A stretch of 64,000 nt of DNA from sequence record OR992645.1; one strand, given 5' to 3'. The notes under the pieces were generated by a model. That model was not told the origin of the DNA, made no database searches, and worked only from the letters and a program-made list of their open reading frames with translations. The position numbers and the translations under genes were made by a program. Below are positions 9,733 through 16,976 of this stretch, piece after piece (position 1 is the first letter of the stretch; each line of letters begins with the position of its first letter). This DNA comes from Escherichia phage EI-SP-GF.

Positions 9733-11214
9733 TTACTTAGCATACTCGATTAATTCCACAGTTTTCCCAAAGCTCGGGATATAATTTTTATTATACCCTT
9801 CAGTGAGAACCCATAAAGTATCGTACTTTTTCCACTTGTTGTCAACAGCCTTTTGTTCAAAGTTATGCTCAAAGTAGAGGTCGGTAAGGACGATGACATC
9901 TTTTGCATTCGGTATGTTAGCATCCAGATACTCGAACACGCAGGCGGCTGTTGTGCCCCATGTTGAGTGGACCTCATAGTTGATCATCTCATCGATGTTA
10001 CCGCGAGTGTATACTTTAACCTCTCCAACCTCGGTTGACCAACAGAACATCGTAACCTTAAACTCTTTATACAAATTGCACAACCCGGTGATCTCATTGA
10101 ACATTTTCTTTAAAGTTCTTTGCGAGATCGATCCAGAAACGTCCAAAGCCACTACAATATCTATGGTGTTTTCCGGATTACGACCAGGAACAATAATGTG
10201 TTGATTCTTGTTTATAGCTCTAACTTTTCGCATTGTGGTGGTCAAAGACCCAGATCGGCGACCAGGTTTTCTGTAGGTTAGCTCGGCCTTTCGTTTAGAC
10301 AACATACGTTGCTTAATAATATCTATATAGTTGATTACAGGCTTGCCTCTGTTTTTGACAAACTCGCGCACCGCCTCAGGGCAACGACCTCCTGAAGCTT
10401 GCATTGCTGCTTCCAACATGTCACCAGAGTCCTGCATGGCCTGATCTTTATCAGATTGACTGATTACTGGTTGCGGCTGATCATACCCCATAGCCTTTCC
10501 AAGATCATCACTAGTGCCACCGTTCCCGCTCATGTGATCATCGGTTTGTCGTTTATCTCCTTGGGAGTTCTCGCCTTTACCATTCTTACTTTTACCGCTA
10601 TTCTGATCTCTTTGTTTATCAAGAACTGCATAGACGTTCTCAGCAATCCATCCATGAAACTTCATGTCGCAGTAGCAATTAGCTAAGAAGCCAAAAGGCT
10701 TACCTTTTACGAACTCAGTGCTTTTCCCCTTCGGGAAGAAAACACAAGGAGGCTTGCTAAAGTCAACCACAAGACCTGTGTTGATAACGTGATCACAAGC
10801 AATATTGAACAGTTCCGGCTCAAAGCTTTTACCACGGACCAGATGATCACAGATAATATGCCCCACCTCATGTGACAGAAGGAAGGCCACCTCTTTCACA
10901 GATTTTGGGGAATAGAAAACCTCAGCCATCTCAAACTGCTTGTCAGTCAGAGATGCTTTAAGAATGGTTTTACGCTCATCTGCCAACCCCATAATGAACT
11001 CAGGGCTGTAGTAGATGCGTTTATGGTCTGTTGCCATAGTGGAGCACCATGTGTGGTTTTCTACGAACTGCAACCCTGACAACAGTGTGCCATAAAACGG
11101 CAGCTTTTCAAGAAGGTACATGCGAGCGGCCTGCAGCATTCGCAAGGCATCATCTTTTTGTGCGGTAATGATTTCTGAACTTCTGCTATCCATTAAAACT
11201 CCAGAAGGGGCCAT
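9733..11214 (-). CDS. Fused putative zinc metallopeptidase / von Willebrand A-like domain protein (DUF2201-type)
   Basis: HExxH (LLSHEVGHIICDH) in N-terminal half; MIDAS-like DxSxS (IVVALDVSGSIS) in C-terminal half; Gly/Ser/Asp-rich linker. Confidence 0.75.
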   Translation of the reverse strand: MAPSGVLMDSRSSEIITAQKDDALRMLQAARMYLLEKLPFYGTLLSGLQFVENHTWCSTMATDHKRIYYSPEFIMGLADERKTILKASLTDKQFEMAEVFYSPKSVKEVAFLLSHEVGHIICDHLVRGKSFEPELFNIACDHVINTGLVVDFSKPPCVFFPKGKSTEFVKGKPFGFLANCYCDMKFHGWIAENVYAVLDKQRDQNSGKSKNGKGENSQGDKRQTDDHMSGNGGTSDDLGKAMGYDQPQPVISQSDKDQAMQDSGDMLEAAMQASGGRCPEAVREFVKNRGKPVINYIDIIKQRMLSKRKAELTYRKPGRRSGSLTTTMRKVRAINKNQHIIVPGRNPENTIDIVVALDVSGSISQRTLKKMFNEITGLCNLYKEFKVTMFCWSTEVGEVKVYTRGNIDEMINYEVHSTWGTTAACVFEYLDANIPNAKDVIVLTDLYFEHNFEQKAVDNKWKKYDTLWVLTEGYNKNYIPSFGKTVELIEYAK

Positions 11215-11226
11215 TGGCCCCTGTCA

Positions 11227-12216
11227 TTATTTAACGTGCTTGAAAATACCAGCCAACTCGGTCATTGTCATGCGAGTGGTCTTCATAAGGTCTGTCATAG
11301 CCTTCTCCATGATTGGAGATACTACCATGAAGTTACCTTTGGTGAAACCTTTGTTCCAGTCGGTAACTAATAGGGGTTTAAGTCCGGCACCGAGACGTTC
11401 ACCAGTTAAAGCACAACATTTTCGAATGTATGTGCTCTTAAACTGGCTGAATGACAGATCAACTTTCATACCTGCATCGTAGAACGTCTGGCAATAGAAA
11501 GTGTAAGCTTTGGCAATCTCAACATCGTCAGGCAGTGCAGGAACCTCTTCTGTAAGCTCTTCTTCGACCCCTTGAGGCTCTTTTTCCTCTTCGTAAGCCT
11601 GTTGCGTCATCTCTTCAATCTCCTCTACTACAGGCTCGTTTACAATGTCAGAAATGTGCTTGTTGGCTCCACGATTAGCCATGAAGTTTTTAAAATCCTG
11701 CATTGGTGACATATCTTCCTCCCATTCTTCGTCAAAGAGTGCTAGTTTATCCTCTTCCGTTCCATATTGCAAGATGAAATCTTCAAAAGTGTAATCACCT
11801 TTCAATTTCTCCATACGCTCTTCGCTCAGGTGGAGCATCATCTGCTGGACAATTTTTCGATCAGTTTTATCTTTAATCAGGACTGCGGTCTTTTTATCTA
11901 CCAGACAATCCTTTAGAGAGTTGCATCTCAATCCCACCACACAACAGTTATCAACCGCATAAGGACCTTCATCATCTATCCGCTCTAGAGATGGGTAGAA
12001 AGGATTTCCCAGTCCGTTTTCATCTGTGTGCATGTCGAAAGGTATAAGGGTATAGTCGCATACCCCCTCTCCTAAAAGTTTTTTACCAAATAGGAGATAT
12101 TCTTCCCATGACAGGTTGAACTCTATATCTCGTTTCCGTGCATTATTCTGTTTGCGTCTGTATTTTTTGAGCAAGCGCTCTAACTCTTCTGGTGTATAAT
12201 ATTTTTCAAGATTCAT
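11227..12216 (-). CDS. HNH_3-like endonuclease-family protein with acidic C-terminal half
   Basis: SLERIDDEGPYAVDNCCVVGLRCNSLK resembles the RID..GY..DN...N..K motif; start moved to ATG 12216 because a minus-strand promoter (12249-12277) lies inside the longer ORF. Confidence 0.5.
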   Translation of the reverse strand: MNLEKYYTPEELERLLKKYRRKQNNARKRDIEFNLSWEEYLLFGKKLLGEGVCDYTLIPFDMHTDENGLGNPFYPSLERIDDEGPYAVDNCCVVGLRCNSLKDCLVDKKTAVLIKDKTDRKIVQQMMLHLSEERMEKLKGDYTFEDFILQYGTEEDKLALFDEEWEEDMSPMQDFKNFMANRGANKHISDIVNEPVVEEIEEMTQQAYEEEKEPQGVEEELTEEVPALPDDVEIAKAYTFYCQTFYDAGMKVDLSFSQFKSTYIRKCCALTGERLGAGLKPLLVTDWNKGFTKGNFMVVSPIMEKAMTDLMKTTRMTMTELAGIFKHVK

Positions 12217-12248
12217 GAGTTGTCTCTTGTTCTCTGTGGGTGGAGAAA

Positions 12249-12277
12249 TCTTACCAAGCGCCTGGGGAGATGTCAAC
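12249..12277 (-). promoter_or_regulatory. Sigma70-like promoter (TTGACA-17-TAAGAT), minus strand
   Basis: Reverse complement of 12249-12277 reads TTGACA, 17 nt, TAAGAT; divergent from plus-strand promoter. Confidence 0.5.
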
Positions 12278-12289
12278 CTCAAAAACGTG

Positions 12290-12318
12290 TTGACTTTACT
12301 CTAAATCTCCGATATAGT
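12290..12318 (+). promoter_or_regulatory. Sigma70-like promoter (TTGACT-17-TATAGT) for the plus-strand replication block
   Basis: TTGACT 12290-12295, 17 nt spacer, TATAGT 12313-12318; AGGAG RBS and ATG at 12359 follow. Confidence 0.65.
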
Positions 12319-12358
12319 GCACCCATTCGAAAGAAAACTAACATAGGAGCACTTATTC

Positions 12359-13258
12359 ATGGCAAATCTTAACAGTTTTAGCACCAGGTGGCAACAGGAT
12401 ATAACAACCAATCTTTCAGCTGGAGATATCCTTTCTGCAATTTACGAGGCTTTGGATGATAAAGCTACTTCAAGATCGGTTTGTACTAATCCGCTAATTC
12501 CTATGGTGATGAAGGTAATTGAGCGGAGGTTGGTATCTGGGTCCGATAAGTGGACATACCTTGATAATGGAGGGCATACTTACTCCAACGGATATGTTGA
12601 TATAAAAGTGGAATACGCAGTATCATACCGCCGGAGCGGTTCTGTAACTTTCAACTTCTCTGGAGGTTTCCGATCTCTGGCAACTTCACCTTTTGTTTCC
12701 TCAGAGGAGAAGTATGAGCTGCCATTTCTTTGGATGATGGCTAACGCGACAGGAAAAACCCCCGTTAGCATCCGAGTAAAATACAACTACAACGGATCTA
12801 GTAAGATCTATGCCGAGAGTGTCTCAGCAAGTTTTTATTTTGTGATGGGGGATGGAATCCTCAAACATATAAAGATGTGCGATATGCATGATGTTATAAA
12901 TGAAGTGACTGATAAGAATGTCCTAGTGAAAGACCTCAATAATTTTTATACACCTGGAGACTATTACGTCAACCGCCCACTGTGCATCTTTAATGCCGCA
13001 CACCCTTTAGGTGAGTATTTGATCGCCAATAGCGATATTGCCAATAATCGCTTCGAGGTAGCAAGAGTACAGAATGAGGTGTTGACATCTTGCAAGAGCG
13101 GTGATAAGTTTACCGAAGAAGAGATGGGTGTTTTAGAGATGATGGGATATAAGTGTAGCCTTTGGGTAGATGAGGTGTTTAATGACGGCATCTATGGACA
13201 GGATATTTACCCACTAAAGAAGTATACTGATTCCAGTTTAATTTACGCGGAGATTTGA
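12359..13258 (+). CDS. Hypothetical protein
   Basis: 299 aa ORF with AGGAG RBS, first gene after promoter. Confidence 0.7.
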   Translation: MANLNSFSTRWQQDITTNLSAGDILSAIYEALDDKATSRSVCTNPLIPMVMKVIERRLVSGSDKWTYLDNGGHTYSNGYVDIKVEYAVSYRRSGSVTFNFSGGFRSLATSPFVSSEEKYELPFLWMMANATGKTPVSIRVKYNYNGSSKIYAESVSASFYFVMGDGILKHIKMCDMHDVINEVTDKNVLVKDLNNFYTPGDYYVNRPLCIFNAAHPLGEYLIANSDIANNRFEVARVQNEVLTSCKSGDKFTEEEMGVLEMMGYKCSLWVDEVFNDGIYGQDIYPLKKYTDSSLIYAEI

Positions 13259-13260
13259 CT

Positions 13261-13533
13261 ATGATGAAGTCATGTGGTAGTGTATATTATGTTGGTGAGA
13301 ATGTTCAGGCAGATAGTGTGTGGAAATCCATTAAGTCCACCACCGATGATGCCTTCTTGAGCGGGTTATGTTTCCCCAATCCTGGGGACATTCTCCCTCA
13401 CCCTGGGGATTTTGTTGTCAACAAGACAGACGGTTATACCGTGTGCCTGATGGTTGAAAAAATCTTTTTAGACACTAGACACAATCACCGTCTTGTGCTA
13501 AAATTTCAAGAATGTAAAATGACAGTTGCCTAA
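13261..13533 (+). CDS. Hypothetical protein
   Basis: ATG 13261 with GGAG RBS (track start 13255 is TTG). Confidence 0.5.
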   Translation: MMKSCGSVYYVGENVQADSVWKSIKSTTDDAFLSGLCFPNPGDILPHPGDFVVNKTDGYTVCLMVEKIFLDTRHNHRLVLKFQECKMTVA

Positions 13534-13545
13534 GGAGGCCTATCA

Positions 13546-13902
13546 ATGTCTAAAGTTACTTATCGTGCAGCTATTTACTGCAATGAGCAACCAATCAATA
13601 GTGATGGTCACTGCTTTTTTAAAGAAAATCAGTTGGGCTGTATTGCCCTCCCTGATGAAGGGGAAGGTTATATGATTGCATTGACAGGGTTTGAGCCTGA
13701 AGCCTTGGAAGCCAATCTGGACTACCTAGTAGAGAAGGGTGCTGCAGACTTGGTTGCCAATGGCCTCTCCATAAGCCTTGAAGAAGTGGAGCGCTTCATG
13801 GGCAATTACCGTGTAGTGCGTGAGTTCACTATCGAGGTGGAAACTCCAGAGTGGGGTAGCACTGAAACTAATGCTGAAGAAAAAGAAGAGGGGGTAGAAT
13901 AA
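13546..13902 (+). CDS. Hypothetical acidic protein
   Basis: AGGAGG RBS; 118 aa. Confidence 0.6.
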   Translation: MSKVTYRAAIYCNEQPINSDGHCFFKENQLGCIALPDEGEGYMIALTGFEPEALEANLDYLVEKGAADLVANGLSISLEEVERFMGNYRVVREFTIEVETPEWGSTETNAEEKEEGVE

Positions 13903-14159
13903 TGAAAGTGCAGATCTTGACTAATGCCGAGAAGATGTTTATCGAAGATACGCCTTTTGAAACTGGTGAGCTACAGTTTGTATATTTTGTTGACTTAGAT
14001 AAGGTTTTTCCTGCGCTGAATCTGGGTTTGGAGAAAGTACCTTATAAAACTCTATGCCAGGTTGTCCGTGCCTTAGCAGCAGATGGAGAGTTCCACACCC
14101 TTGAAGATATCCAGACCTATGGGTATCTTGAACTGCAACGAGAAGAAGAGGTAGACTGA
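13902..14159 (+). CDS. Hypothetical protein
   Basis: TAATG overlap with upstream gene; GGGGG RBS. Confidence 0.55.
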   Translation: MKVQILTNAEKMFIEDTPFETGELQFVYFVDLDKVFPALNLGLEKVPYKTLCQVVRALAADGEFHTLEDIQTYGYLELQREEEVD

Positions 14160-14161
14160 TA

Positions 14162-14542
14162 ATGGCCCAGTGGAAGACAACAGTTGACCTTCATGATCAG
14201 TGGTTAGGACGCATAACTGAAGACGGGAAACTGGTAGAGTGGGACAACAAGCATGTTAGCGAGTTGGCAAGTATTGTGGCTGGCAAGTTACGCTCCAAGT
14301 TCCCTGAACAACTGGATCCTGATAATTCAAAGTTCGATCCTGAGTTGGAGGATGTTGTATACTACTTCGATACCGTGGATGACTACGATGCGTGGCTTGC
14401 AGCACGGAATCTTTACCCGCAAGGCTCTGCTATGCGCCAGATGGAAGAAGATTATCCTCCGTGTGAGCAATTCAATAGCGCAATGACTTGCCTCTATGAT
14501 TGGGCAGATAAGAACCTTGTCTGGATTCGAACTGCATTCTAG
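14162..14542 (+). CDS. Hypothetical protein
   Basis: 126 aa ORF with GAGG RBS. Confidence 0.6.
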   Translation: MAQWKTTVDLHDQWLGRITEDGKLVEWDNKHVSELASIVAGKLRSKFPEQLDPDNSKFDPELEDVVYYFDTVDDYDAWLAARNLYPQGSAMRQMEEDYPPCEQFNSAMTCLYDWADKNLVWIRTAF

Positions 14543-14545
14543 TAG

Positions 14546-14851
14546 GTGGTGGCAGGGATGCCGCTTAGAAGAGTAATAAACATGTTATACCAGAAACACG
14601 AACTTTGTGCAGAAAAAGAGTTAAATTTTGACAAAGTTATCCACAGATATTGTTACGGGAAAACCGGAAGATACCTAAAAAGGTGGACTCCAGCATTCTT
14701 TCACCCCAGCAGGAGACTAAGCCCTGAAGAAGCAACAGCAGAAAGGGTTGCATACAACTGGGAAGTTGTGTACGATATTGACAGATCCGATGTGACATCT
14801 GTTTTGGAAAACTTTGAAAACACTTACACACAAGTAGAGGACTTTTACTAA
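14546..14851 (+). CDS. Hypothetical protein
   Basis: 101 aa ORF; start ambiguous (GTG 14546 or ATG 14558). Confidence 0.5.
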   Translation: MVAGMPLRRVINMLYQKHELCAEKELNFDKVIHRYCYGKTGRYLKRWTPAFFHPSRRLSPEEATAERVAYNWEVVYDIDRSDVTSVLENFENTYTQVEDFY

Positions 14852-16035
14852 TGTCAAGAAACGTATTTGAAAGTGGTCAAATCACTGTCCGTGAGTTGCC
14901 AGCTATTATTCAGTTTGCCCAGCGTCATAACCGATCTGTCCTGATTTTAGGACCAATGGGCGTGGGTAAGAGCCAGGTGATGAAGCAGATTGCCGATAAT
15001 ATGTTCGGTGAGCGAGATGACAACCTGGTTGACGTGCGACTGTCAGATAAAGATCCTGCCGACTTATCTGGGCTACCTATCCCTGTAGAAGCGGATGGAA
15101 CTACACGTACAGTGTTTGCAATTCCAGAATTTTGGCCTTCGGATCCGGACTGGAGCGGAATTATCTTTCTGGATGAGCTTACTCATGCAGATAATTACCT
15201 GCAAAAGGTTGCAATGCAGATTATGCTCGACCACAAGTGCGGCACCTATGCATTCCCTAAAGGCTCTGTTTTTGTGGCTGCGGGTAACCGTTCTACAGAT
15301 GGTGCGGTTCTTTCGGCGCTCGAAGCTCCTCTGGCTAACCGCTTTATCATTGTAGAGGTTACAAGCAATGCAGAGGTGTTTATTGAGGACTACGCATTCC
15401 TTAATGGGGTGCATTCCTCTGTAATTGGATATCTGAAAAGAGTTCCATCAGCTATCGATAATTATGAGGCTATGGCTGAGATTAATTGTCCATCTTTTGC
15501 CACACCGCGATCTTGGGTTGCTGCATCTGATATCTTGCACGATTTTGACAGCGGTATTATTTCTGACGCTATGGCCCGTGTTCTTCTGCAAGGTGCTATT
15601 GGTCACACTGCAGCGGTAGAGATCTGGACCTACCACACCAAGAAACGCAACTTACCGGAAATCGGTCGGATTATGGCAGGTGGTTGCAAAGAATACGTAG
15701 GTCCTAAGCAGCCAGACATCTTGTGGATTCTTGGATCTGAAGGTTGTATCGCTATTCGTAATATGATGGAAAATGCAAGTATCTCTGACGAAGATCTTGT
15801 CAGCTGCGTGGCAAACTTCCTCGATTTCCTTTGGGAAAACTTCAAGGACGAGAACCGAGATTTTGTATTCTCAGTCTTTATGGCGATGATGAAACCTAAC
15901 GCCTTAGGAAATGCCTTGCTTATCGGTAAAGGGCGTGACAAGATCGTTGCTCAACTGATCAAAGCGTACCCAAACCTGATGAAGATTGTAAAAGAGTTTG
16001 GTGAAGAGTTTAGCGCCATTTTAGCTAAAGCTTGA
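14851..16035 (+). CDS. MoxR-like AAA+ ATPase (AAA_5 type)
   Basis: Walker A GPMGVGKS, Walker B IIFLDELTHA, sensor AAGNRS; 394 aa. Confidence 0.8.
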   Translation: MSRNVFESGQITVRELPAIIQFAQRHNRSVLILGPMGVGKSQVMKQIADNMFGERDDNLVDVRLSDKDPADLSGLPIPVEADGTTRTVFAIPEFWPSDPDWSGIIFLDELTHADNYLQKVAMQIMLDHKCGTYAFPKGSVFVAAGNRSTDGAVLSALEAPLANRFIIVEVTSNAEVFIEDYAFLNGVHSSVIGYLKRVPSAIDNYEAMAEINCPSFATPRSWVAASDILHDFDSGIISDAMARVLLQGAIGHTAAVEIWTYHTKKRNLPEIGRIMAGGCKEYVGPKQPDILWILGSEGCIAIRNMMENASISDEDLVSCVANFLDFLWENFKDENRDFVFSVFMAMMKPNALGNALLIGKGRDKIVAQLIKAYPNLMKIVKEFGEEFSAILAKA

Positions 16036-16044
16036 GGAGGTTGT

Positions 16045-16425
16045 ATGGCTAAAGTAGGTAAGCGGGGAAACTACTTGGTGGTATTGACCGAGGAGCCGGA
16101 GAAGGAGTACGAATGCAGCTCCACTTGTGTGATCGATATCCGAGAAAAAGATGTGGATGAAATCTGGTTTAAAATACTGGACGCTTGCGACAGCAGTGAC
16201 TATTTCTTCATCTATGTCAACGATAAAGCTGGGTTCTTCCATGACGATGGGGAATTACCGTATGAAATTTATGAACTTGTAGAGGCTTGCCATCGTGGAG
16301 ATGCGGAGTTGTTTGGTCTACGGCTGAAAAGCGGTAAATTCTTCTATCAAGATGAATGCATGAATCTTCACAACTTCGTAGAGGGGACTTGCAACGATGG
16401 AGAGATTTTGGCACACTACGATTAA
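16045..16425 (+). CDS. Hypothetical protein
   Basis: GAGGAGG RBS; 126 aa; followed by terminator. Confidence 0.6.
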   Translation: MAKVGKRGNYLVVLTEEPEKEYECSSTCVIDIREKDVDEIWFKILDACDSSDYFFIYVNDKAGFFHDDGELPYEIYELVEACHRGDAELFGLRLKSGKFFYQDECMNLHNFVEGTCNDGEILAHYD

Positions 16426-16437
16426 TTTCTAAGACAC

Positions 16438-16467
16438 ACCCCCGCTTCGGCGGGGATTTTCTATTTG
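16438..16467 (+). terminator. Rho-independent terminator
   Basis: CCCCGC-ttcg-GCGGGG hairpin followed by ATTTTCTATTT. Confidence 0.65.
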
Positions 16468-16475
16468 GAGCTATT

Positions 16476-16976
16476 GTGAAAATTAAAATCTTTGCTATTA
16501 TTTTGAGCGCATTTTTATCGCTGCCTGTTGTTGCAGCACCAAAACAAAAAGTATATCACACTTGCAAGCCGTCGGATACTAAGGAAAACATTCTAGCATG
16601 CAATATCTACAGGGAGGCTAGAGGGGATGGCACGATGGGTATGCTGGCATCCGGATTTGCCACACTAAACAGGAAATCCCACCCCAAATACCCAGACACT
16701 ATAAGAAAGATTGTCTACCAACCTAACCAGTTTTCGTGGACAAACCACGGCAAAACTTTTAAGGTGACAGAAAAAGATTCATGGGATCACGCTAAAAGTC
16801 TTGCAAAGATGCTTCTAAAGGTCTATAATAACAACCATGTTGCATACATGGCTATGGATATAACAGGTGGAGCAACACACTACCATACAACAAAAGTACG
16901 ACCGAAATGGGCAAAAAAGATGCAGAGGACAGCTCAATTCGGGAGTCATATCTACTACAAGGAGCGCAATAAATGA
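16476..16976 (+). CDS. Secreted cell-wall hydrolase, SleB-like (Hydrolase_2 family)
   Basis: GTG start after GGAG RBS; N-terminal signal peptide VKIKIFAIILSAFLSLPVVAAP; NIYREARGDGTMGMLASGFATLNR resembles the SleB catalytic region; the track start 16356 would read through the terminator. Confidence 0.65.
   Translation: MKIKIFAIILSAFLSLPVVAAPKQKVYHTCKPSDTKENILACNIYREARGDGTMGMLASGFATLNRKSHPKYPDTIRKIVYQPNQFSWTNHGKTFKVTEKDSWDHAKSLAKMLLKVYNNNHVAYMAMDITGGATHYHTTKVRPKWAKKMQRTAQFGSHIYYKERNK

Follow-up and report, generated by a model that had tools for sequence, protein, structure and literature searches.

The 64,000-nt stretch of Escherichia phage EI-SP-GF analyzed here (sequence record OR992645.1; hereafter, the window, which as a whole represents a Vequintavirus, or rV5-like, genome) contains, in a 6.3-kb region of interest, a gene on the minus strand for a fused metallopeptidase and von Willebrand factor A (vWA) protein (9733..11193, hereafter vWA-peptidase) and a gene on the plus strand for a MoxR-class AAA+ ATPase (14851..16035). 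We consider it likely that the two are the separated halves of a conserved module, split by one inversion and still served by a shared control region, and that their products would act together in ATP-driven proteolysis targeted by the metal ion-dependent adhesion site (MIDAS) of the vWA domain. The bidirectional promoter of the split locus has already been reported for phage rV5 (Kropinski et al., 2013; PMC3606486), and the pair of MoxR and metallopeptidase–vWA proteins has already been described in jumbo phages (Iyer et al., 2021; PMC7824862). What we describe is a lineage-specific gene-order variant of this already described phage module, real but modest.

An earlier note on this DNA, made from the sequence alone, had proposed a fused HExxH peptidase and vWA (MIDAS) protein on the minus strand, and this description was borne out by the domain searches. 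The open frame 9733–11214 (minus strand) matches Pfam DUF2201_N with E = 1.8e-28 (100.4 bits vs. the gathering cut-off of 23.2) and Pfam DUF2201, a vWA-like domain, with E = 3.5e-11 (43.7 bits vs. 26.4); the DUF2201_N zincin-like metallopeptidase comes first and the DUF2201 vWA domain second (Pfam PF13203 + PF09967), and both are above threshold. In addition to the full-length Pfam scan, the two halves of the protein were rescanned separately. Although the frame is open to 11214, the true start is probably ATG 11193, because a GGAG Shine-Dalgarno sequence lies 5 nt upstream of it and a 486-aa protein is annotated in phage EmilHeitz; the residues are numbered from this start, which yields 486 aa here as well. 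The zinc-binding and catalytic motif HExxHxxxxH (HEVGHIICDH, aa 108–117) is encoded at 10843..10872, the MIDAS motif DxSxS (DVSGS, aa 351–355) at 10129..10143, and the further MIDAS residues downstream of it, T414 and D438, at 9952–9954 and 9880–9882, respectively, all on the minus strand. In the alignment of 34 homologues, with identity down to 21%, the invariant columns are H108, E109, H112, H117, A132, and D134 in the peptidase part, D351, S353, S355, G413, T414, T437, and D438 in the vWA part, and G476 near the C terminus. The protein thus holds a zincin HExxHxxxxH site and a complete MIDAS (DxSxS...T...D) on a vWA fold. According to the AlphaFold model (mean predicted local distance difference test score, pLDDT, 83), the C-terminal domain matches the vWA folds of BatB, integrin I domains, the NorD vWA domain, and BchD. 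In profile searches, the peptidase half has weak matches to selecase MJ1213, BepA, HtpX, and M48.

Several smaller observations concern the same protein. The peptidase domain of the Vequintavirinae type carries an insertion of ~45 residues before HExxH (aa ~62–106), which is absent from the bacterial and N4-like members, and the peptidase part of the model is followed by a disordered linker with a high content of Gly, Ser, Asp, and Lys (aa 202–228, pLDDT <50). An 819-aa protein (P0145), considered as a candidate natural ATPase–vWA fusion, was rejected, as it consists of two DUF2201 domains plus extra sequence and nothing more. PHROGs (1314, 3118) and many RefSeq phage records label both the vWA-peptidase (9733–11214) and the neighboring Srd-like protein (11227–12216) as “HNH endonuclease,” and the same issue arises at four other loci (L007, L008, L091, L092); Pfam finds no HNH domain in either protein, and the label looks like a propagated mis-annotation.

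The ATPase, 394 aa with a helical C-terminal extension, contains Walker A (GPMGVGKS, aa 34–41; 14950–14973), Walker B (IIFLDE, aa 104–109; 15160–15177), and the sensor-1 residue N146 (15286), all encoded on the plus strand. Walker A, Walker B, N146, R147, R164, and R220 are invariant across 38 homologues. Because direct searches of Pfam, NCBIfam, and PDB sequences gave P-loop-level matches only, homologue profiles and a structure model were used to assign the class. Homologues with 31–38% identity over 70–92% of the query (E ~1e-45 to 1e-42) carry AAA_3, AAA_5, and sometimes bpMoxR; one of them (P0047, 35% identity, E = 2.8e-45), when rescanned, passed all three gathering cut-offs, with 31.7 bits vs. 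27 for AAA_3 and 26.9 vs. 22 for AAA_5. The best match of the family profile among PDB sequences is midasin. The AlphaFold model (pLDDT 82) has a beta-hairpin within helix 2 (aa 76–89) and a second, short one preceding sensor 1 (aa 129–135), as expected for the helix-2-insert clade, and its top 16 Foldseek matches in PDB are all NorQ and CbbQ2 (E = 5e-7 to 1e-5), both of them MoxR ATPases that have a vWA protein as their working partner. Three independent lines, that is, the domains of homologues, the family profile, and the modeled fold, support the assignment of the ATPase to the MoxR class. The profile searches suggested in the note therefore confirm DUF2201/vWA directly; for the “MoxR-type AAA_5 ATPase,” the MoxR class stands, via homologues and fold, while the direct AAA_5 label does not.

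The two proteins are a co-occurring pair. Comparison of both with 50,697 phage records by tblastn retrieved 739 records for the vWA-peptidase and 820 for the ATPase, with nearly identical distributions over host genera (vWA-peptidase/ATPase: Escherichia, 216/215; Pseudomonas, 104/108; Vibrio, 95/103; Klebsiella, 62/68; Pectobacterium, 26/26; Cronobacter, 17/17; Achromobacter, 17/17). To establish the gene order, 90 loci were scanned with profile hidden Markov models of both families: 80 IMG/VR loci, found via the ATPase alignment, and 10 others. The ATPase alignment was used since no stretch of the DUF2201 alignment was conserved enough for a degenerate-pattern scan. In 71 of the 90 loci, the vWA-peptidase gene lies directly downstream of the ATPase gene, on the same strand and with a gap of <300 bp, and in three more the same co-directional order is seen with a gap of ~0.5 kb. 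In phage phiTE, the gap between the two genes holds an HNH homing-endonuclease gene. The co-directional arrangement thus amounts to 74 loci, phage, metagenomic, and bacterial, which agrees with the expectation in the note that genes of these classes are normally adjacent and co-directional. It is also seen elsewhere, in the N4-like phage YH6, where the record notes read “N4 gp24-like” and “N4 gp25-like,” in jumbo phage PBECO4 and Aeromonas phage 2L372D, and, as an adjacent pair, in two bacterial chromosomes; looser co-directional pairs, with gaps of 1.5–2.9 kb, occur in locus L101 and in jumbo phage Deifobo. The 10 loci without a partner all end at most ~1.1 kb beyond the ATPase gene, and none of the 90 loci has >1.5 kb of downstream DNA and lacks the vWA-peptidase partner.

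The divergent arrangement of the window occurs in the remaining six of the 90 loci and, among the loci examined, only in Vequintavirus, Seunavirus SSE121, Avunavirus Av-05, and close uncultured relatives. The start codons of the vWA-peptidase gene (11193, minus strand) and the ATPase gene (14851, plus strand) are 3.66 kb apart; counted from the open frames, the spacing is 14851 − 11214 = 3637 bp. This matches the distance of 3.6 kb given in the note, which had also placed the two genes on opposite strands either side of a divergent promoter region, 12217–12358, and had called the arrangement unusual. It is indeed unusual for the family, though it is genus-wide in Vequintavirus and also present in Seunavirus and Avunavirus. 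The 6.3-kb region matches 121 phage records, nearly all of them Escherichia rV5-like phages of the genus Vequintavirus, with best-match identities of 90–99%, and in 114 of these records a single match spans at least 80% of the query. The gene order is the same in the annotated relatives EmilHeitz (bas49_0055 to 0063) and ECP26. As relatives throughout Vequintavirus have the same gene order, the split is not peculiar to the window and is fixed across the genus (>110 records). Comparison of gene order in related phages, also proposed in the note, shows the two genes as a conserved pair, usually adjacent and co-directional.

The origin of the split was reconstructed from signed gene orders, with SSBI34 and phiTE on one side and Av-05, SSE121, and the window on the other. 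In the Certrevirus-like phage SSBI34, the order is −SleB −RNA ligase −phosphatase ... [−Srd-like | +HD hydrolase ... +ATPase] +vWA-peptidase. In Av-05, read on the other strand, it is −SleB −RNA ligase −phosphatase [−ATPase ... −HD | +Srd-like] +vWA-peptidase, and for the genes in common with Av-05, the window and SSE121 show the same split arrangement. Judging by these signed orders, SSBI34 and Av-05 differ by one inversion of the bracketed segment, which bears the strand switch, and one of its breakpoints falls between the ATPase and vWA-peptidase genes. The inverted order is the derived state, because the adjacent order is found in all outgroups. A single event also fits the divergence of the ATPase, whose identity to the window protein is at least 48% in the split lineages and at most 43% in the co-directional Vequintavirinae-like lineages. 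A search for inverted repeats at the breakpoints yielded short, chance-level matches only; given that the inversion is old, loss of such repeats is expected. Taking all this into account, we suggest that one segment of ~4–5 kb [Srd-like | bidirectional promoter | HD ... ATPase] was inverted in the ancestor shared by Vequintavirus, Seunavirus, and Avunavirus. The bidirectional promoter would have been carried along, so that the ATPase gene would have stayed 2.5 kb from the promoter that already served it, and the vWA-peptidase gene would have landed behind the sister promoter as the second gene, just after the Srd-like gene.

The 142-bp spacer 12217–12358 holds two back-to-back sigma70-like sites, predicted by consensus matching, each agreeing with the consensus at 10 of 12 positions. 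The leftward site (12248..12276, minus strand) consists of TTGACA, a 17-nt spacer, and TG-TAAGAT; the rightward site (12290..12318, plus strand), of TTGACT, a 17-nt spacer, and TATAGT; the −35 hexamers of the two are 13 bp apart. Both sites are among the eight strongest promoter matches in the scan of 8 kb. In six Vequintavirus genomes, where the spacer is ~81% to 92% identical to that of the window, the −35 hexamers of the two sites do not vary, whereas the leftward promoter shows variation between its −10 and −35 hexamers. An equivalent back-to-back pair is present in SSBI34, and Av-05 and SSE121 each have one strong promoter site facing the Srd-like gene. These predictions agree with the bidirectional promoters placed between genes 10 and 11 of rV5, where gp11 is an Srd homologue (PMC3606486). 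No informative site for the rV5 “late” motif TggTAaAAtA was found near either gene. The Srd-like gene of the window (11227..12216, minus strand; 329 aa from ATG 12216), annotated as “anti-sigma factor” in EmilHeitz and matching PHROG Srd and sigma70-decoy families, opens the leftward unit, with the vWA-peptidase gene coming right after it.

The vWA-peptidase and ATPase genes lie at distances of 1–2.5 kb from this shared sigma70-like control region and are probably both made from it, as two transcripts, at the same (early) time, which is the simplest expectation if both depend on one sigma70-type region. The note had taken the split to suggest separately regulated components. This is not supported, as the inversion moved the bidirectional promoter together with the segment, leaving both genes at the same control region; what was lost with the split is any translational or stoichiometric coupling of the pair. 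Functional decoupling along the lines of the note, with independent regulation, expression at different times or in different amounts, and possibly solo action or new partners, seems unlikely to us. It draws on the placement of the two genes in different transcription units, as predicted by our promoter scan and as reported for rV5, where the two arms were assigned to the units “10-1-238-164” and “11-26” (PMC3606486). Moreover, the ATPase gene is the seventh of its unit and the vWA-peptidase gene the second, so that differing stoichiometry is possible; a hairpin lies immediately upstream of the vWA-peptidase gene; each of two uncultured contigs, discussed below, has one of the genes with no partner nearby; and within Vequintavirus the ATPase is more conserved, with at least 99% identity in 101 records vs. 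five for the vWA-peptidase. However, both units begin at one back-to-back pair of promoters of the same type, both genes retain all catalytic residues in each complete split-lineage genome examined, and the window contains no second vWA or MoxR gene that could serve as an alternative partner. In most lineages, the two proteins also diverge roughly in parallel (identities of 50/45%, 51/47%, 36/35%, 36/36%, and 73/61%).

Some of the data weigh against the proposed reading of two separated halves of one module at a shared promoter. Compared directly with Pfam, the ATPase scores 16.7 bits for AAA_5, under the cut-off of 22, and AAA_3 is unreported; taken alone, it falls below every Pfam and NCBIfam threshold, and comparison with NCBIfam and with PDB sequences recognizes only the P-loop. 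For the peptidase half, no solved structure is a confident relative, all strong fold hits being to the vWA half. The number of promoter matches over the 8-kb region is not above the shuffled expectation (20 vs. 15.8 ± 3.8). Finally, tight linkage of the pair is not obligatory, since two uncultured contigs each show one gene alone: in L102, the ATPase gene is located in the rIIA arm, with no partner or strand switch within 7 kb, and in L106, the Srd-like gene is followed by the vWA-peptidase gene, with no ATPase gene in 5.3 kb upstream and 9.4 kb downstream and, as in L102, no strand switch. No cultured relative of either contig was found. They reflect either a further rearrangement that moved the genes far apart or the loss of one partner.

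As for function, we found no characterized member of the DUF2201 vWA-metallopeptidase family in the literature, and nothing on the function of the MoxR proteins of rV5 and Vequintavirinae or the von Willebrand domains of N4-like phages; the function of N4 gp24 and gp25 is listed as “unknown” (PMC2784036). The best mechanistic template is NorQ–NorD, in which a vWA “finger” enters the pore of the hexamer and ATP hydrolysis remodels the partner (PMC13036017), and it is on this ground that ATP-driven, MIDAS-targeted proteolysis is proposed. By analogy with NorQ–NorD and CbbQ–CbbO, the ATPase hexamer would grip the vWA domain of its partner, the MIDAS metal site would bind an acidic residue of a target protein, and ATP-driven remodeling would expose the target to the fused zinc peptidase, which would cut it. 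The domain content, the conserved catalytic residues, the co-occurrence and ancestral adjacency, the inversion, and the promoter motifs were established here, and from these we infer the physical interaction of the two proteins, the proteolysis, the timing, and the target. With low confidence, we favor an intracellular target, a host protein or a non-structural phage protein, over a virion protein, since the surroundings of the two genes, both in the window and in the N4-like phage YH6, are early, replication, and host-takeover genes.

The opposite view, in which the pair serves virion assembly as a chaperone and a processing protease, has been published for the homologous jumbo-phage pairs by analogy with the MoxR/vWA pair required for tail growth of the Acidianus two-tailed virus (PMC7824862). 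The pair of PBECO4 does directly follow genes annotated as virion structural proteins, whereas the genes of the window are found at sigma70-type promoters among the Srd-like, rIIA/rIIB, helicase, and endolysin genes, outside the structural module. The YH6 pair, too, is surrounded by replication genes (helicase, DNA polymerase, deaminase), and in N4 this region is of the middle, replication class. As weak negative evidence, the paper on the phiTE virion mentions neither protein, and on balance a role in assembly appears rather unlikely. The pair could also be a chaperone that inserts metals or activates an enzyme instead of a protease, the HExxH domain being a metal-handling or metal-binding module. 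NorQD inserts iron, CobST and BchID insert metals, and CbbQO reactivates Rubisco. Among solved structures, NorQ and CbbQ come closest to the ATPase, and NorD and BchD provide matches for the vWA domain; rV5 itself encodes metalloenzymes such as ribonucleotide reductases (PMC3606486), and the bacterial pair adjoins a thioredoxin gene in two genomes, with a ferrochelatase gene nearby in one. Yet the Glu of HExxH is invariant, and this residue is the general base of zincin peptidases and dispensable for simple metal binding; in addition, the N-terminal domain matches the Pfam “putative metallopeptidase” strongly and M48/selecase weakly. This makes a pure metal chaperone very unlikely in our estimation.

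Returning to the preferred reading of MIDAS-targeted proteolysis, one extension, highly improbable, is that the inversion was not neutral: the Srd-like decoy would capture host sigma70/sigmaS or another host protein and hand it to the MIDAS/zincin protein, with the MoxR ATPase powering the cleavage in trans. If so, the Srd-like and vWA-peptidase genes would form a promoter-proximal host-takeover operon, and the pair would be a target-specific ATP-driven protease that shuts down host transcription or defense. Beyond that, the split represents an ordinary change of gene order by inversion around a bidirectional promoter. The separation has persisted in three genera, which shows that the pair requires neither cis-linkage nor translational coupling, and for the same reason each gene is easier to manipulate separately. 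The MoxR/vWA-peptidase pair is among the most widely shared uncharacterized modules of large lytic phages, being present in N4-like, rV5-like, and several jumbo groups, and rV5-like phages, as candidates for therapy and biocontrol that grow on E. coli K-12, are convenient for finding its function.

Several known systems are related to the pair. According to tblastn and the record notes of YH6, N4 gp24 (AAA ATPase) and gp25 (vWFA protein) of Schitoviridae belong to the same two protein families; the N4-like pair is co-directional, with 0–0.5 kb between the genes, whereas the window pair is on opposite strands and 3.6 kb apart. The group 2.2 jumbo phages (Iyer et al., 2021, Viruses 13:63) have an identical architecture of a MoxR ATPase and a vWA protein with an N-terminal metallopeptidase, and the homologues in the PBECO4-like and RaK2-like jumbo phages are 25–28% identical to the window proteins; that study covers jumbo phages with adjacent genes and mentions neither the 136-kb rV5-like phages nor the split. 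The ATPase finds its best structural matches in NorQ–NorD and CbbQ–CbbO, and NorD is a match for the vWA domain as well, with identities of 17–20%, but NorD and CbbO lack the peptidase domain, and their targets are respiratory or carbon-fixing enzymes. Bacterial pairs of AAA_5 and DUF2201_N/DUF2201 proteins, for example in Sulfurivermis fontis, represent the same module, and their gene order and orientation correspond to those ancestral in phages; these are chromosomal, uncharacterized, and 21–31% identical to the window proteins. Finally, the vWA–MoxR ternary conflict systems with VMAP (Kaur et al., 2020, eLife 9:e52696) also combine a MoxR ATPase with a vWA protein and may have a peptidase as an effector, and, as in these systems, some homologues of the window ATPase carry Pfam bpMoxR. 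However, the window pair is encoded by a phage and not in a host defense island, and no third ternary component (VMAP, FtsH, beta-propeller) was found near it, eight neighboring proteins having no Pfam match. As judged by PADLOC, which returned nothing relevant, the pair does not belong to the known defense systems.

The sign of the GC skew switches at ~12 kb of the window. On the left side of the strand switch, the stop codon of the Srd-like gene is separated from the vWA-peptidase ribosome-binding site by a perfect, GC-rich hairpin (11206..11222) with a 7-bp stem and a loop of 3 nt (minus strand, AGGGGCC-AAT-GGCCCCT). Only on the plus (antisense) strand does this hairpin have a terminator-like score; it may serve in attenuation, RNA stability, or processing.

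On the right side, six genes of 299, 92, 118, 85, 126, and 101 aa (12359..14851, plus strand) lie between the rightward promoter and the ATPase gene. None of the six has a Pfam domain; all belong to conserved PHROGs. The 101-aa protein is assigned to phrog_13164, labeled “ATPase,” and the other five to families of “unknown function.” The product of the first (12359–13258, plus strand; 299 aa) is widely annotated as “putative alpha 1-3 fucosyltransferase,” but neither Pfam nor NCBIfam yields a match, and the annotation seems to lack support. The last (14546–14851, plus strand; 101 aa) is ~89 aa long in the annotation of relatives and has no match to a P-loop domain, and its “ATPase” label in PHROGs was probably borrowed from the adjoining gene. 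It overlaps the start codon of the ATPase gene by one base, which suggests translational coupling.

Downstream of the ATPase gene, the last gene of the rightward unit (16045..16425, plus strand; 126 aa, no assigned function) is followed by a strong terminator-like hairpin, CCCCGCTTCGGCGGGG, with a T-rich tail (16440..16455, plus strand). This hairpin probably ends the promoter-proximal rightward operon, just beyond the ATPase gene and the one gene that follows it. The longest frame of the next gene, for a SleB-like cell-wall hydrolase (16356–16976, plus strand), would cross the hairpin; its real start is probably 16476, as relatives annotate a 501-bp SleB-like gene, and the hairpin is then intergenic.

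Some of the records used for comparison deserve comment. In three bacterial loci (L005, L099, and L100; gammaproteobacterial), the AAA_5/DUF2201 pair stands just after thioredoxin and Hsp15-like S4 genes, and in Sulfurivermis fontis a ferrochelatase gene is also located near the pair; such neighbors may hint at a stress or redox role of the bacterial module. Sixteen records named “Campylobacter phage” (MG0656xx) match the E. coli rV5-like region, with identities of 91–95% listed for eight of them; C. jejuni is given as the host in 15, and this attribution looks doubtful. In an uncultured Vequintavirus-like contig (L104, 1–1557, minus strand), the PIF1-type helicase encoded downstream of rIIB is 1174 aa long and contains Hint, intein-splicing, and LAGLIDADG domains, that is, it contains an intein.

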